Source of the DNA: Octopus vulgaris
Taxonomy: Eukaryota
Length of the DNA: 64,000 nt
Assembly: GCA_951406725.2 (NCBI GenBank)
Contig: OX597825.1
Location: 72,912,001-72,976,000, forward strand
Direction of reading: 5' to 3'
Shown: positions 1-57,802 of the stretch, in pieces
How the letters are laid out: each line of letters opens with the position of its first letter
How positions within the stretch are numbered: the stretch's first letter is position 1
Translations under genes and position numbers: made by a program
The notes under the pieces: generated by a model
Told to the model about the DNA's origin: nothing
Databases searched by the model: none
What the model saw: only the letters and a program-made list of their open reading frames with translations

Positions 1-360
1 AGCTCAAATCCTGGACCGGGCTGCGTGTTGTGTTCTTGAGCAAGGCACATTATTTCACGTTGCTCCAGTTCACTCAGCTGTAGAAATGAGTTGCGACGTC
101 ACTGGTGCCAAGCTGTATCGACCTTTGTCTTTCCCTTGGATAACACTGGTGGCGTGGAGAGGGGAGGCTGGTATGCATGGGTGACTGCTGGTCTTCCATA
201 AACAACCTCGCCCAGACTTGTGTCTAGGAGGGTAGCTTTCTAGGTGCAATCCCATGGTCTGTGTCGTGACCGAAGGGGGTCTCCGTCTCCGAATAATAAT
301 AATAACAACAACATCAAAAATTACCTTAGGAATGAGAACCCAGGTTCGAAATTTCCCCAA

Positions 361-406
361 GACACCTGAAGAAGGCTGAAGGGTATATCAGCCGAAACGT
401 TGTGTT
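361..406 (+). ncRNA. Minimal hammerhead ribozyme in short repeat element (~296-460)
   Basis: gacac CTGAAGA a ggctga-agggtata-tcagcc GAAA cg TT gtgtt. Same family at 9370-9520 (-) and 9770-9912 (+). Confidence 0.8.
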
Positions 407-1570
407 AACAACAAACAAGATGAGGACAAATATCCATCGAATGTAAATAATGTAAATAATCTCATAAAACAGGTAGAATATTCGGGCTCAATATGACCAG
501 TGATTCTTTATCATTCAGATTATTCTGTCAAATATAATGCTTATTTATTCACATTGCTTTGAATTAATCATGCAGTGTCTTCAAAGCTTCAAGATTTCAA
601 TAGTCTGTTTCTATATTCTTTGAATGACATTGTAGGGTAGGTGTGAGAGGCTGGATATGGTCAGTTTTAACATAAAACAGATTGAATATTTGAGCCGGAT
701 ATGACCGAATTAAATGTTACAGGGTTAAATGCCAGAGGATTAAGCCAGGTACAATATTTTTCAAGCATATTTTCAAAACAAATCTTTGTCAGGATTAGAA
801 TTTGATAGGGACATTGTGTTATCTCTAGGCATTATAAATAATGTATCAATGCTCAATATAATTTCAACACATAAATCCTCACATTTTTAGCAATTTATCT
901 TGTATCTATTACTTGTGTCAGCCTTTGCACTACAGCCATGCTGGGGCACCACTTTGAAAGGTTTAGTTGAACAAATAAACTCCAGTGCTTACTTTTTTTT
1001 TTACTTTGGCTTTTATTTTGTAGGTCTCATAGGTTAAAGTTAGAGGGACGCAAACAAACCAACACTGATTGCTAAATAATGGTAGGGTGCAACAACCATG
1101 ACCAACAGTTAGTGAGATGCTGTTGCTGCTGCTGTTGTTGTTGTTGTTGTGTTTAAGCAACAAGAAGGGTAAGGGTGATTAGGTGATGGTCTAGGGCTTA
1201 GGGGCGGGAGACCCCAGACCTTGGGAAAAAAAAACTTTGGTCGTCTTGGTGTAGTCAAGGGCTCTTCGTTGACGCCCGACACCACTGGGAGGTGGCCTTC
1301 GAAGTCGCTGGAAATGGAGATCTCCAGGTCCAAATTCTTGAACGGCTGCTGCTAACCTAAATGCCAAGCAGTTTAAAATACTGAAGTCTACATAGACACA
1401 CATTTCTTTGGCTGTTCCCTTTTAAAGATAGACCTTTGCACCCGAAATGTAAAGTTTTTTGCAAAACCTTCTGCATTGCTAGAAGCTTTCTTTATTTCCC
1501 TTTTCTTTCATGTTCTACTTCTGTACTACAATGCTTCAAGCAAACTACAACACTCTTAGATATACATACA

Positions 1571-2180
1571 TAAATTATAATTTTAATAATAATTATTACC
1601 TTTGAAGGTTTTTTATTTCCATGCTGGCCACTTGATAAGATCGTTATTTAATTTAAATTAGCGATCTTGTCCTCATTTATATAAATTTAAATTTATTTCA
1701 TCACTGTATTTACTGTGGTGATGTTTTAACCATATTGCATGATGAAGTTCCGAAGCAGGCAATTTAAACTGGTCGTGTTGCATACATGCATATATAAGTA
1801 TGTATACGTTCATATATGTAAGTATTTGTATGTTGTATGTATATATATATGTGCATTTATGTTACTCTCTGCGTATATTCCACTGATGAGGCAAAGCATT
1901 TCTAAATGCAAAGTCAGAAATCCGGGAGCTGGAATTATCCAGTAATTTTTTACTAGTTTTATTTTGTCTTTTTGTCTTCTCTCCTTGTGCTGTATGGGCA
2001 TTTAATGTGGTTTTAGAGTCAGATCTTGGCTGCTATTTTCAGCATGGCAGTATCTCTTAGATACCTTAAATTATAATTTTAATAATAATTATTACCTTTG
2101 AAGGTTTTTTATTTCCATGCTGGCCACTTGATAAGATAATTATTTAATTTAAATTAACGATCTTGTCCTTATTTATATAT
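1571..2180 (+). mobile_element. ~497-bp monomer plus partial direct repeat with degenerate HHR (1877-1935)
   Basis: 1571-1685 is repeated at ~2067-2180. Motif attcca CTGATGA ggc...gtca GAAA tccggga gc tggaat. TA-rich flanks. Confidence 0.7.
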
Positions 2181-2183
2181 AAA

Positions 2184-2380
2184 TCTGTCGCCATGATAGA
2201 TCGTTTGCCACTACACACATTTTTTTCTCTCCTTGTTTTTTTCTGTGTCCCTTTCTGTAGAAGAGTGTAGGCTCGAAACGTAAAACACTTTTTTTATTCC
2301 TGAGCGCTATACTAATACATCTGTTTGTTTTGTACACCACCTGTCTTCATCTTTTGTTTATTTTCGTAAACTTTCCCTTT
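2184..2380 (+). mobile_element. Short HHR-like element, A6U family (motif 2251-2286)
   Basis: ttt CTGTAGA a gagt-gtag-gctc GAAA cg TA aaa; ends in (TA)n; homologous to 44653-44890 and 48337-48530. Confidence 0.75.
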
Positions 2381-54525: not shown

Positions 54526-54696
54526 GACTATATATATATATATATATATATATAATTTACTTAAAAGCAGCTTTTGTTATATTTCTGCTGCTTTTAAATA
54601 AAGCATATTGCTCTACCTCAGGTATTTGAGTACTCTTTTTCCACCTTGTTTCACATTTATGTACTTACTCTAGAATATATATATATATATATATAT

Positions 54697-54925
54697 AGTT
54701 AATCCAAACAAGAAAGCACAAAAAAAGACAACAACGCGAGGACGTGGAACAAATATAGTATTATTGGACGCTCAAGAAAGAAGGAAAGAAGGAGGGTTTA
54801 ACATTTTGAGCGGAGCTCTTCGTTGGAAACATAGGAAAAGGAAAGATCCAGAGAAGGGAAGACAGAGGAAAAAAAATCGCCTACGGTACACACGAGGTCA
54901 CATTTTGAAAGACCGGAAGGTCTTT
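54697..54925 (-). mobile_element. Same ~200-bp family, decayed HHR 54796-54830
   Basis: Reverse complement of 30045-30252; (TA)n flanks. Confidence 0.75.
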
Positions 54926-56399
54926 ATATATATACACACACACATAGATATACTGGACTTTTTTGCAGATGGCCTTGGACAAGTTGCATGGATTGCCAGC
55001 CCACATGCAGGGTATTTTTATGAGATACTACTTGTGTGGATCGCTAATGGCTCATTATGAGCTTTGGCACACCAACCCTTTGTGACAGGTCTTGTTTTAA
55101 GTCCTGCAGAGTGTCCACAACACTGTCCTACCTACCTGACTTACTACATGGCAGAGCCACTTTAAGTCCTGACCACAGGACTTAAAGAGGTTGTACTTGG
55201 TTGCTTGGTGCAAGCAGCAAGTATTTGTGCTATTTTTTTTCTGTAACCCCATAAAGATGTACAATGTCATCTTGTACAGCCTTGATGGAAATTTGCTCTC
55301 GAGTTGGAGTTGATGTCCATGAGTGGTGTGGCATAGACGAGAAATGTATGTATGTGTTATACACACACACTCTCACACATACAGACACATACATACATAT
55401 ACATACATACATATACATTCCTGTTGGGTGTTCATCGTACTCCACAATAAAAATTAAGTTAATGTTACCAGTAAAAAGATATAAATAGTGTTTTTATTAT
55501 CTTTTTACAACATAGTCAGCTGTTATGACTCTCTCCTCTCTGCAGAGAACTCCTTAGTCGTAAGAACTGGTCATGTTTTAAGATGATAATAAAGACAATA
55601 CATTGTGTGTGTGTGTGTGTGTGTGTGTGTGTGTGTGTGTGTGTGTGTGTGTGTGTGTGTGTGTGTGTGTGTGTGTGTGTGTGTGTGTGTATTTGTGTAT
55701 TTAGGGAGAGAAAATATATAACATACATATACACACACAGAGCATATATATGTGTATAGATGTATATATATATATATATATATATATATATATATATATA
55801 TATGTATATATGTATGTGTATATATTATATATATATATGTATATATATATATGTGTATATGTATATATATATGTATACATATGTATATATATATATATAT
55901 ATATATATATATATTCATACATACATACATACATACATACACAATACATACATACATATATACATACACATAAATATATATATTGGCCTGCTTGCTTAGC
56001 CAGTGGGGTGGTGTCATTTGAAGGCTAAAACAATGCGAAGTGCATTGTGACCAGCGATGTGTAGCAACATCTGATAGCCTGGTCAGTCACAGTGATCACA
56101 GTGATATATATAATCAAAATAAGCAAGATGATATCAAGTAATGATACAGTACGACCGTTTCAAGCAGCTCCATTTAATTGAACAATGCAATCATTACATC
56201 AGTTTAAATGCATACATACATATACTGGGATTTGCAAAAGTCCTGTTACACTTCGTTTTGATCTTTCAAGAGGTTTACATGTGTGATAGAAAAAGTGTCG
56301 TCAAATATACTGAAAATTCTACTTCTCCAGCAGATATCATTAAAACATATTTTCCATTGTGTGCAGGTGTATTGAGATGGAAGCAAAAAGGATTGAGAT

Positions 56400-57092
56400 C
56401 TCTGTTCCCTTGTGGTCCACAACAAGTCTGACATCACCAAGCAGCTCAACATCAGAGTTGCAGAGTGGCTCAAGAACAGGAAAGACCTCAAAGATTGACC
56501 TTGATCAAGCAGACCTCAAGTTGTTAATCATTTGGTTGTGAGAAAGGCCTTTGAAAGAGATCTAAAGTTCAAAATGACTGCGCTCATGAAGACCAACAAC
56601 ATCTTGGTGGCCACGATGTCCAGAGCTTGAGGTGCATGGAAAGTCCTCTGCTCACCAAAAGTGTATGAAAACAATGTTGGGAGTGTAGTTGTTGCCTTTT
56701 CAACAACATAAAGTGTCATGGCAATTGAATTCTCATTTTTTTCTAATGAAAAAAAAACCTTCACAGTTGATCTGGTTATCAACAAGCAGAACAACCATAT
56801 GGTCAGCTTCAGCCAGGATGTCTTTGAGGTCTGCTATGCGTCCACAACCAAGCACCCAGCCTCTGTGATGATGCTTGGTGTCATGGCTTTGAATGGCAAA
56901 GAGATGCCACCAGTGTGGTTTGCTGCTGGTTACAGGCTCACTATGGCTGACTACAAGGACATCTTGACCACAAAAGTCCTACTCTGGGTGAGAAAGATTA
57001 TGAAGAAGACAAGCTATGTCTTTCAGTAGAACAGTGCCCCAGCCTGCACGGCCAAGGCCATGAAAGAGTGGTTTAGGTTGAACCTGAACTAA
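56400..57092 (+). pseudogene. Decayed Tc1/mariner-superfamily (maT/rosa-like) transposase
   Basis: FSNEKKTFTVD..NKQN, KHPASVMMLG, PPVWF, YVFQ*NSAPA.TAK. Confidence 0.8.
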
Positions 57093-57337
57093 TGTCTCAT
57101 TTGTGAGGACATTGTCTTATTTTTGGTAAGAGGCTTAATGGAACATTAGTAAGGAGTTTATTACCTCAAATTGTGTTTAGTAAAAGAACAATGTTTTAGA
57201 GAAGCAGCGATTGGCAGGTGTCGTCTGCCTTCCTTCATTAATACCATTTTTTTTCATCATTCATCTCATTAATGTTATTGTCCAGCCTGCAGCTACTACT
57301 TCTCTGTGATGCCTTGATGGCTAATTGAATGAAATAA

Positions 57338-57802
57338 AGTTCCAGGTTCAGTCCCACTGCGTGGCACCTTGGGCAAGTGTCTTCTACTATAGCCTCGGGC
57401 CAACCAAAGCCTTGCAAGTGGATTTGGTAGATGAAAACTGAAAGAAGCTCATTGTATATATATGTATATATATCTATATCTATATATATATATATATTCT
57501 AGCAAAAACTGTCCGATGAACGGCAACGGGAAACTCAGAGTAACAGATTTTGTTGAATTTTCTGATGCTTTATATAAAGTATATATATATATATGTATGC
57601 ATGTGTGTTTGTCCCCTCCAACATCACTTGACAACCGATGTTGGTGTGTTTATGTCCCCATAACTTAGCAGTTTGGCAAAAGAGAACAATAGAATAAGTA
57701 CTAGGCTTAAAGAATAAGTCCTGGGGTTGATTTGCTCGACTAAAGGCGGTGCTCCAGCATGGCCGCAGTCAAATGACTGAAACAAGTAAAAGAGTAAAAG
57801 AA
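57338..57802 (+). mobile_element. SINE family A, 5'-truncated, with HHR mini element in its (TA)n
   Basis: Homology to 8528-8950. Confidence 0.85.
57497..57580 (+). mobile_element. ~80-bp mini element with HHR (57509-57546) in SINE (TA)n; decayed relative at 33553-33632
   Basis: ctgt CCGATGA acg-gcaa-cgg GAAA ctcagag TA acag. Confidence 0.7.

Follow-up and report, generated by a model that had tools for sequence, protein, structure and literature searches.

What are the hammerhead-like motifs that crowd a 64-kb stretch of the Octopus vulgaris genome, and which elements carry them? A preliminary description of this stretch (hereafter the window, G000:C12:72912001-72976000 within a 2.8-Gb genome of 227 contigs) had proposed about twenty motifs in some eight families of short repeats, targeted to microsatellites and spread genome-wide by one or more autonomous Penelope-like elements (PLEs) together with many non-autonomous passengers or solo end repeats (pLTRs). 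We compared the window with ten 100-kb blocks (1 Mb in total, 800 kb on eight other contigs and 200 kb flanking the window) and read the best or first 20–30 genome loci of each family. With good confidence, we conclude that the motifs are hammerheads in the end repeats of six coding PLE families and within two non-coding retrozyme families likely moved by the same enzymes, and that short leader RNAs and internal priming would explain the abundance of the short copies. Families A, C, D, E, E2 and G are each joined somewhere in the genome to their own frame encoding a reverse transcriptase (RT) and a GIY-YIG endonuclease (EN), while B and F are tandem arrays without an open reading frame (ORF). 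Because six families are the ends of their own coding PLE, solo pLTRs are the main answer, and the passengers of the preliminary description shrink to two families; the genome-wide PLE system with tandem and inverted structures that it envisaged is supported.

Hammerhead motifs and their core variants

Each of the 20 positions originally listed holds a stem I, core, stem II, GAAA, short palindromic stem III and UH, or a decayed copy of a family with this order, and the motifs fall into the eight families A, B, C, D, E, E2, F and G, in agreement with the number first estimated. The search with a relaxed descriptor that had been proposed as a check (no more than one core mismatch, with a bulge permitted beside stem II) gave 14 matches in the window, 13 at listed positions and one stray at 29928, of which 13 have a palindromic stem III; 12 local dinucleotide shuffles gave 1–4 matches, 0–1 of them palindromic. 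An initial descriptor (stem I of at least 4, bulge disallowed) recovered family F alone, and allowing two mismatches blurred the signal (50 real against 20–27 shuffled matches). A strict descriptor, adjusted after the motifs had been seen and hence partly circular, passes 14 of the 20 motifs against a mean of 0.017 over 60 shuffles of the window. In the 1-Mb sample it yields 35 matches against 0.33 in shuffled sequence, including families absent from the window. The density of intact motifs is therefore about 6-fold higher in the window than in the sample (14 per 64 kb versus 35 per Mb), and by extrapolation from about 35 per Mb the genome would hold some 100,000. Standard models do miss these motifs, as had been predicted: Rfam gave no match at gathering score across the window, and two local scans contained no hammerhead at E<=10.

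Six of the listed copies fail the strict descriptor. U16.1 is changed to G at 1877, C3 is lost together with a short deletion at 9819, and there are G8A at 17754, G8A with G12A at 30117 and G5A with G12A at 54796; the copy at 57509 is weak, with a stem II of just 2–3 bp. The family majorities of all six are nevertheless proper folds, and better hammerheads than the single copies. This, the location of the motifs, which matches that of published PLE hammerheads, and the excess over shuffles at one mismatch and under the strict descriptor leave a negligible chance that the motifs are fortuitous folds of AT-rich, microsatellite-rich DNA, an explanation that could draw on the two-mismatch counts and on the weak folding of single motifs.

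The majorities of A, B, E, F and G show the core CUGANGA...GAAA...UH with stems I and II and a palindromic stem III, G with a U3-A8 swap. Two core variants stand out: A6U in nearly all copies of C, and U4C in about half of those of D and E2. Mutagenesis of hammerheads would predict impaired cleavage for changes at A6, yet C, with its A6U core, is the most abundant family of the 1-Mb sample. Stem covariation, another check proposed at the outset, appears limited but real: across 108 copies of C and D (an 18-row alignment was also made) the fourth pair of stem I is G-C in 50, C-G in 41, G-U in 6, A-U in 2 and U-G in 1, hence paired in 100 and unpaired in 8. The motifs have the fold of minimal type I hammerheads and are predicted to cut as dimers, a mode of cleavage reported by Lunse et al. 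2017 (as cited through PMC6765202).

Six coding elements and two retrozymes

By their motifs, the six coding families comprise three of Neptune/Nematis type (G, C and D, a label that leaves the two clades unseparated), two of Hydra type (E and E2) and one of Poseidon type (A). Family G is present in the window as a young, near-intact full-length element (Table 1). Its two pLTRs are 98.7% identical, and the 5' one is followed by a 35-nt tail and ORF1, for which Pfam gave no family above cut-off and Atlas no match. A U-UUU-UUA heptamer (21220-21226, minus strand) marks the overlap of ORF1 with ORF2 in the -1 frame, and a -1 shift there would fuse both frames; the first Met of ORF2 falls downstream of its conserved N-terminal motif, and no obvious stimulatory hairpin was seen by eye near the heptamer. 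In G locus L003 RVT_1 scores above cut-off and GIY-YIG slightly under it (E 4e-4), and both domains are found in homologues; the window copy has H changed to R in its CCHH motif and a short deletion at the end of ORF2. There are 57 scored genome matches at 97–100% amino acid (aa) identity, and all inspected outer ends run into TA. Family G thus shows RT followed by GIY-YIG, hammerhead-bearing pLTRs as direct repeats, tandem and inverted copies and a tail at one end, the anatomy of EN+ PLEs. A CX2-5CXXC linker and a CCHH motif are present in both G and the parent of C, and a C-type repeat lies 3' of an RT-EN frame in L220. In three of the ten D loci fetched (L211, L213 and L215) a decayed RT-EN lies between D repeats; this parent is 52–66% identical to that of C, on which identity its clade assignment rests.

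For E, an RT-EN frame recovered with a Hydra-type query lies upstream of the repeat in L217 and has 20% identity to the G protein. For E2, a 565-aa RT-EN frame lies between inverted E2 copies at G000:C3:80065806-80069189. The E parent contains CSCRNKKLC, CGLC and CPH, and the E2 parent fits this pattern except that one linker Cys is changed; the absence of CCHH, the CxCX5C linker, a CxxC and a CxH close to the C-terminus, insertion into (TA)n and a hammerhead all correspond by motif to Hydra. Outside the window we also observed a second young PLE family with many 781-aa open frames (G000:C16:20838796, L365, L368 and L372), whose endonuclease is about 52% identical to that of G and which carries a U3-A8-like hammerhead at its 3' end.

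In the unit of family A a tRNA-like head and an (AAT)n spacer precede the ribozyme body. In three independent loci (L353, L373 and L374) the head lies about 30 nt past the stop codon of a Poseidon-type ORF, an RT-EN without a linker Cys motif that has 150 scored matches at 77–100% identity. About half of 30 loci have near-duplications of 10–15 bp next to the ends, and the window insertion is flanked by one matching at 11 of 12 bases (9329-9340 and 9913-9924). The lack of a zinc-finger linker and of a microsatellite preference, together with target duplications, is what is expected of Penelope/Poseidon. Our Poseidon label follows the clade's motifs and PMC8557442. The A repeat was absent from eight GIY-YIG loci examined. 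The head shows A-box- and B-box-like sequences with a 5' pile-up at the head, although ARAGORN did not recognise a tRNA in L266, nor did Rfam in the window. Neither head, spacer nor body contains a run of four T. Such runs are also absent from 1,760, 1,055 and 979 nt of three overlapping copies of the A parent, where a base shuffle predicts 3.9, 1.9 and 1.5; for the longest copy P is 0.013 by base shuffle and 0.10–0.12 by dinucleotide or codon shuffle, and five other PLE segments hold 3–14 runs. This is a hint, and only a hint, that the A parent is read by polymerase III.

We had initially read A as an independent tRNA-derived short interspersed element (SINE) with a captured PLE end, as in the schistosome hammerhead SINE-like repeats. 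The head is present in 22 of 30 pattern loci, most of which start there, and the missing T runs and the duplications fit as well. We dropped this reading since in the three loci above the coding element's own end repeat comprises the entire unit along with its head, and parent pieces are present in 5 of the 30; a SINE would be independent of a coding partner except for a shared 3' tail, and A is not. It is now largely refuted, and we retain it as an unlikely account. The shared flanks of L256, L269, L274 and L277 were also considered as a parent of A and ruled out: they are a decayed long interspersed element (LINE)-type RT that carries one A insertion, and the two together have been amplified onto several contigs. 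In L253 / L265 one tRNA-like head precedes a tandem of six units, each about 190 bp long and headless, resembling a retrozyme multimer.

Families B and F have the form of non-LTR retrozymes, namely dispersed non-coding tandem units with one hammerhead per unit. B repeats at 495-bp spacing in L325, with no RT match in any of 20 B loci; a B fragment that has a 128-bp fold-back but no ribozyme lies in the window at 58594-58848. F arrays occur on many contigs (219 matches among 40 scored candidates, the best ones listed being 94–100% identical) and are mostly 98–99% identical. No RT is tied to F in the loci read, and one neighbouring fragment belongs to C. The F unit is also found in assembled contigs of 14 runs guessed to be RNA, which show neither transcription, strand nor circles. 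A further retrozyme family, an array of ~485-bp units with an intact hammerhead, was noticed at G000:C8:30047132-30051227. Matches of at least 60 bp in the 1-Mb sample number 12 for A, 19 for C, 15 for D, 9 for E, 8 for E2, 7 for G, 1 for B and 0 for F, so that A, C, D, E, E2 and G extrapolate to tens of thousands of copies apiece.

Table 1. Hammerhead-bearing elements of the window and their parts
Feature	Coordinates	Strand	Details
A copy without head	293..464	+	(AAT)n spacer and body; intact hammerhead 361-406, core CUGAAGA
B, ~1.3 units of 495-bp retrozyme	1553..2181	+	hammerhead 1877-1935, U16.1 to G; stops at long 3' end in TA
C solo end repeat	2189..2378	+	hammerhead 2251-2285, core CUGUAGA (A6U); then (TA)n
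A twin-armed insertion	9341..9912		minus arm 9343-9652, long end, intact hammerhead 9421-9466; plus arm with tRNA-like head 9654-9728 (A + B boxes), (AAT)n, decayed hammerhead at 9819, short end
D solo pLTR	17659..17860	-	decayed hammerhead 17754-17788, core CUGACAA
G full-length PLE, young, near-intact	18075..22633	-	within (TA)n of host SINE
G 3' pLTR	18075..18225	-	hammerhead 18136-18173; short 3' end running into (TA)n
G ORF2	18860..21250	-	RT and C-terminal GIY-YIG, linker CX4CXXC
G ORF1	21187..22542	-	451 aa stop to stop, ATG at 22422
G 5' pLTR	22483..22633	-	hammerhead 22544-22581, core UUGAAAA (U3-A8 swap), stem III palindrome ACCGGU
E twin-armed insertion	22667..22912		minus arm 22667-22804, long end; plus arm 22812-22912, short end, intact hammerhead 22813-22875; both ends in TA
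D solo pLTR	30042..30251	+	begins at fixed 5' end; decayed hammerhead 30117-30151; then (TA)n
F retrozyme array, 533-bp unit without ORF	37347..39300	mixed	minus arm of 2.7 units reaching long end, inverted arm stopping ~130 nt short; intact hammerheads 37634-37709, 38167-38242, 38700-38775 (-), 39069-39144 (+); within (TA)n of host SINE
D-related subfamily	41017..41231	-	hammerhead 41119-41155, core CCGAAGA (U4C)
D, 5'-truncated	43074..43248	+	hammerhead 43116-43150, core CCGACGA (U4C); within (TA)n of host SINE
C	44655..44886	-	hammerhead 44753-44790, core CUGUUGA (A6U); between host SINE halves
C solo end repeat	48338..48529	+	hammerhead 48394-48430, core CUGUCGA (A6U); then (TA)n
D	54698..54920	-	decayed hammerhead 54796-54830 (G5A, G12A); then (TA)n
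E2 solo end	57498..57579	+	hammerhead 57509-57546, core CCGAUGA, weak stem II; within (TA)n of host SINE

Insertion targets, twin ends and 5' ends

The microsatellite targeting of the preliminary description stands for seven families, which end in (TA)n, and fails for A, which does not. TA repeats lie at most 14 nt from the 3' end in 14/15 copies of D, 11/15 of C and 4/4 long ends of E, compared with 6% of random positions; at the short end the counts are 5/11 for E and 6/13 for E2, and most of the others continue into the tail. None of 12 A 3' ends is followed by TA repeats, and the (AAT)n at 361, 9421 and 9819, rather than being a target, is internal A sequence on the 5' side. Within the window, the inner microsatellite of five host SINEs is interrupted, by G with E, F, D, C and E2 respectively, and insertion therefore went into pre-existing repeats. 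This SINE, built of two parts around an inner (TA)n/(TG)n spacer, is itself very abundant (window 8527-8951 and about 17 further copies, about 180 per Mb in the sample). We rejected it as a preferred landing pad, as 3 of 50 insertion loci fall in SINE gaps versus 85 of 1,944 TA tracts in 1 Mb, nothing beyond its TA content. In G, D, C, E and F the element's own sequence is TA-like over a short stretch where the 3' end falls, suggestive of pairing with (TA)n. D copies also sit directly in the TA tails of C, E and F copies (flanks of L044, L049 and L050), the families nesting in each other's tails.

The insertions bear a further signature. In families A, B, E, E2, F and G the 3' end is fixed at either of two sites, separated by 35 to ~130 nt, and in 52 of 53 head-to-head pairs one arm is long and the other short. 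This holds for 12/13 distinct pairs of A (14 rows, one locus twice), 20/20 of E (21 rows, the window twice), 6/6 of G, 2/2 of B and 12/12 of F, the latter being the two-armed arrays among 15 distinct ones, 9 whole and 3 completed from the match list. The pairing, a Penelope footprint, agrees with the pair of internal RT start sites and the cutting of both strands reported for the anole Poseidon (PMC11167929), and it is also present in the retrozymes B and F, which were likely mobilised by the same PLE enzymes. F and G have a common 10-mer at the long 3' end and both are young, making G a candidate driver of F, a proposal against which the existence of at least one further young PLE family, that with 781-aa frames, has to be weighed.

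The scheme of one or two autonomous drivers moving many unrelated passengers, with the ribozyme as a tag, has several points in its favour: B and F are ORF-less and young with a PLE footprint, F shares its long-end 10-mer with a young coding element, and the parents of A, C and D are decayed, so that their late copies could have moved in trans. Against this, six of the eight families have a coding parent of their own, from three clades, and targets vary by clade. Moreover, A6U was fixed in the core of C as it spread, and half of D spread with U4C, which makes an intact ribozyme unlikely as the tag. Taken together, we find the scheme improbable.

In the unbiased sample and the window, 9/21 matches of D begin 196–204 nt and 11/25 of C 186–198 nt from the 3' end, with 3 longer in each family. 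A arms begin at the head boundary in 17/30 cases among the pattern loci (5 reaching parent sequence) and in 10/12 in the sample. The ribozyme of C and D would cut 103–104 nt from the 3' end; its cut site was rejected as the origin of their 5' ends, which lie at ~200 nt, and the ribozyme thus does not make the pile-up. The abundance of C despite A6U, along with 5' ends away from the cut site, is consistent with cleavage being dispensable for insertion in vitro (PMC11167929). Probably, then, most insertions can do without ribozyme cleavage; in B and F, by analogy with PMC7229834, cleavage is probably needed to cut and circularise monomers. In 24 of 30 loci that contain it, the start of the D body joins the next D within -55 to +71 of the pile-up point, after 216–477 nt. 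Fourteen of these junctions lie within -16 to +8 and 17 have a gap or overlap of at most 2 nt; the other 6 loci continue in the body. The resulting repeat-body-repeat units of 430–690 nt have the size of a retrozyme.

We postulate the following mechanism. The PLE enzyme would nick both strands of its target, (TA)n for the Neptune- and Hydra-type elements and plain AT-rich DNA for the Poseidon type, as the anole Poseidon suggests. Reverse transcription would begin inside the RNA at the two mapped sites. The 5' pile-up of C, D and A would correspond to the 5' end of an RNA begun within the end repeat, in A from a tRNA-type polymerase III promoter; Drosophila Penelope RNA starts inside its end repeat (PMC2377424). 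Priming just behind the first repeat would then copy just a leader of 200–300 nt and flood the genome with solo repeats, whereas an enzyme that reaches the 5' end of a short RNA and jumps to its 3' end would produce retrozyme-sized mini-tandems.

Several observations weigh against this model. Some would be expected if the short copies were random 5' truncations of full-length complementary DNAs, with a pause site at the pile-up and internal deletions as mini-tandems. The 5' ends of E, E2 and G are scattered with no sharp pile-up; the 5' repeat passes the pile-up point in 4/6 long D copies and stops there in none; the A loci that reach parent sequence were noted above; and a CA-rich 3' untranslated region lies immediately upstream of the pile-up point in D and C. 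No extra 5' G was evident in the flanks examined, and the pile-up could mark a strong RT stop instead of an RNA end. The D mini-tandem loci were picked with a query from one such copy, which bounds left junctions but not right. Truncation is harder to reconcile with the coincidence of the A pile-up with a head carrying A and B boxes, and with D junctions that converge on one point, mostly without microhomology; we regard it as a possible explanation, if not the one we would choose. Other weaknesses concern the families as a whole. The covariation amounts to one pair and one or two events, folding z-scores of single motifs are modest (-2.8 to +0.2), counts for the related C and D contain a few cross-matches, and the clade labels come from motifs rather than a tree. 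In addition, the two PLE types of a rotifer are reported not to cross-mobilise (PMC3846280), which bears on the driver of B and F.

On balance we keep to leader RNAs and internal priming. A bolder reading, which we put forward tentatively, is that Penelope elements may breed their own parasites: short RNAs started in the end repeat and primed internally would give rise to SINE-like solo copies by the ten thousands and to mini-tandems as nascent retrozymes, and one Poseidon family, with an acquired tRNA promoter, might be a coding retrotransposon read by polymerase III.

The window contains other repeats as well. A 420–440-bp repeat resembling a miniature inverted-repeat transposable element, with 29–36-bp terminal inverted repeats, has three copies (25792-26235, 34433-34845 and 51653-52079). 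Short frames at 29026-29397 and 56712-57029 resemble pieces of Tc1/mariner transposase in their motifs; Pfam gave no such match. Tandem arrays (168-bp and 69-bp) and two long fold-backs, all without hammerheads, occupy 23996-24505, 30570-31052, 48568-48708 and 48859-49233.

Relation to known hammerhead and Penelope systems

A hammerhead census such as ours is in itself expected of a PLE-rich animal genome. Cervera and de la Pena 2014 (PMC4209133) described thousands of minimal hammerheads per genome, mostly single and derived from truncated PLEs. The octopus motifs share with these the presence of several families, opposite-strand pairs 100–700 bp apart, an extra base after A9, the U3-A8 swap, the palindromic stem III and their escape from standard models. 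They differ in number, some 35 intact motifs per Mb (about 100,000 by extrapolation) against 2,000–9,000 per genome, and in the fixed A6U (C) and U4C (D, E2) cores and fixed 5' ends, which the available portion of that paper does not describe. Core variants that have spread to tens of thousands of copies bear on the open question of what hammerheads do for PLEs.

The coding elements agree with the EN+ PLE clades of Craig et al. 2021 (PMC8557442) in having RT then GIY-YIG, pLTRs, an inverted 5'-truncated copy, a tail at one end, a zinc-finger linker linked to (TA)n targeting, the Hydra motifs and an optional frameshifted ORF1. Set against what is available of that account, the tails of 35 to ~130 nt and the tRNA-like head within a Poseidon-type end repeat are different. 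For the Anolis Poseidon in vitro, Frangieh et al. 2024 (PMC11167929) report two internal RT start sites that generate the tail, cutting of both strands and no need for ribozyme cleavage; its start site lacks target homology, unlike the 3' ends of G, D, C, E and F at TA-like stretches. The footprints suggest a reason for the abundance of solo end repeats.

A PLE origin and mobilisation of retrozymes has been proposed (Cervera and de la Pena 2020, PMC7229834; Li, Clavereau and Pollet 2026, 10.64898/2026.07.22.740005). B and F resemble animal non-LTR retrozymes as dispersed, AT-rich, non-coding tandems of a few hundred bp with one type I hammerhead per unit. In the portions available, the retrozyme papers argue from co-occurrence and pLTR homology, whereas here the PLE twin-end footprint ties retrozymes to PLE enzymes by insertion anatomy, with the D mini-tandems as putative intermediates. 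The presence of a young two-ORF PLE (G) and a young 533-nt retrozyme (F) in one genome makes a direct assay of trans-mobilisation possible.

In the literature consulted (mainly titles and the starts of abstracts, with some text from PMC6962438 and PMC10294476, and outside subscription journals, Repbase and Dfam) we found no tRNA-headed PLE end repeat, PLE-mobilised SINE or cephalopod hammerhead family, and the supplements of PMC8557442 and PMC4209133 may list such families. The closest parallel to A is provided by the SINE-like hammerhead retroposons of Schistosoma (PMC6765202, in the part available), which likewise combine a polymerase III-type promoter with a hammerhead in a short repeat. 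The A head differs in lying 5' of the ribozyme as part of the end repeat of a coding PLE, with a PLE footprint at its insertions; a tRNA-type promoter within a PLE end repeat, if true, would represent a new route to the birth of SINEs.

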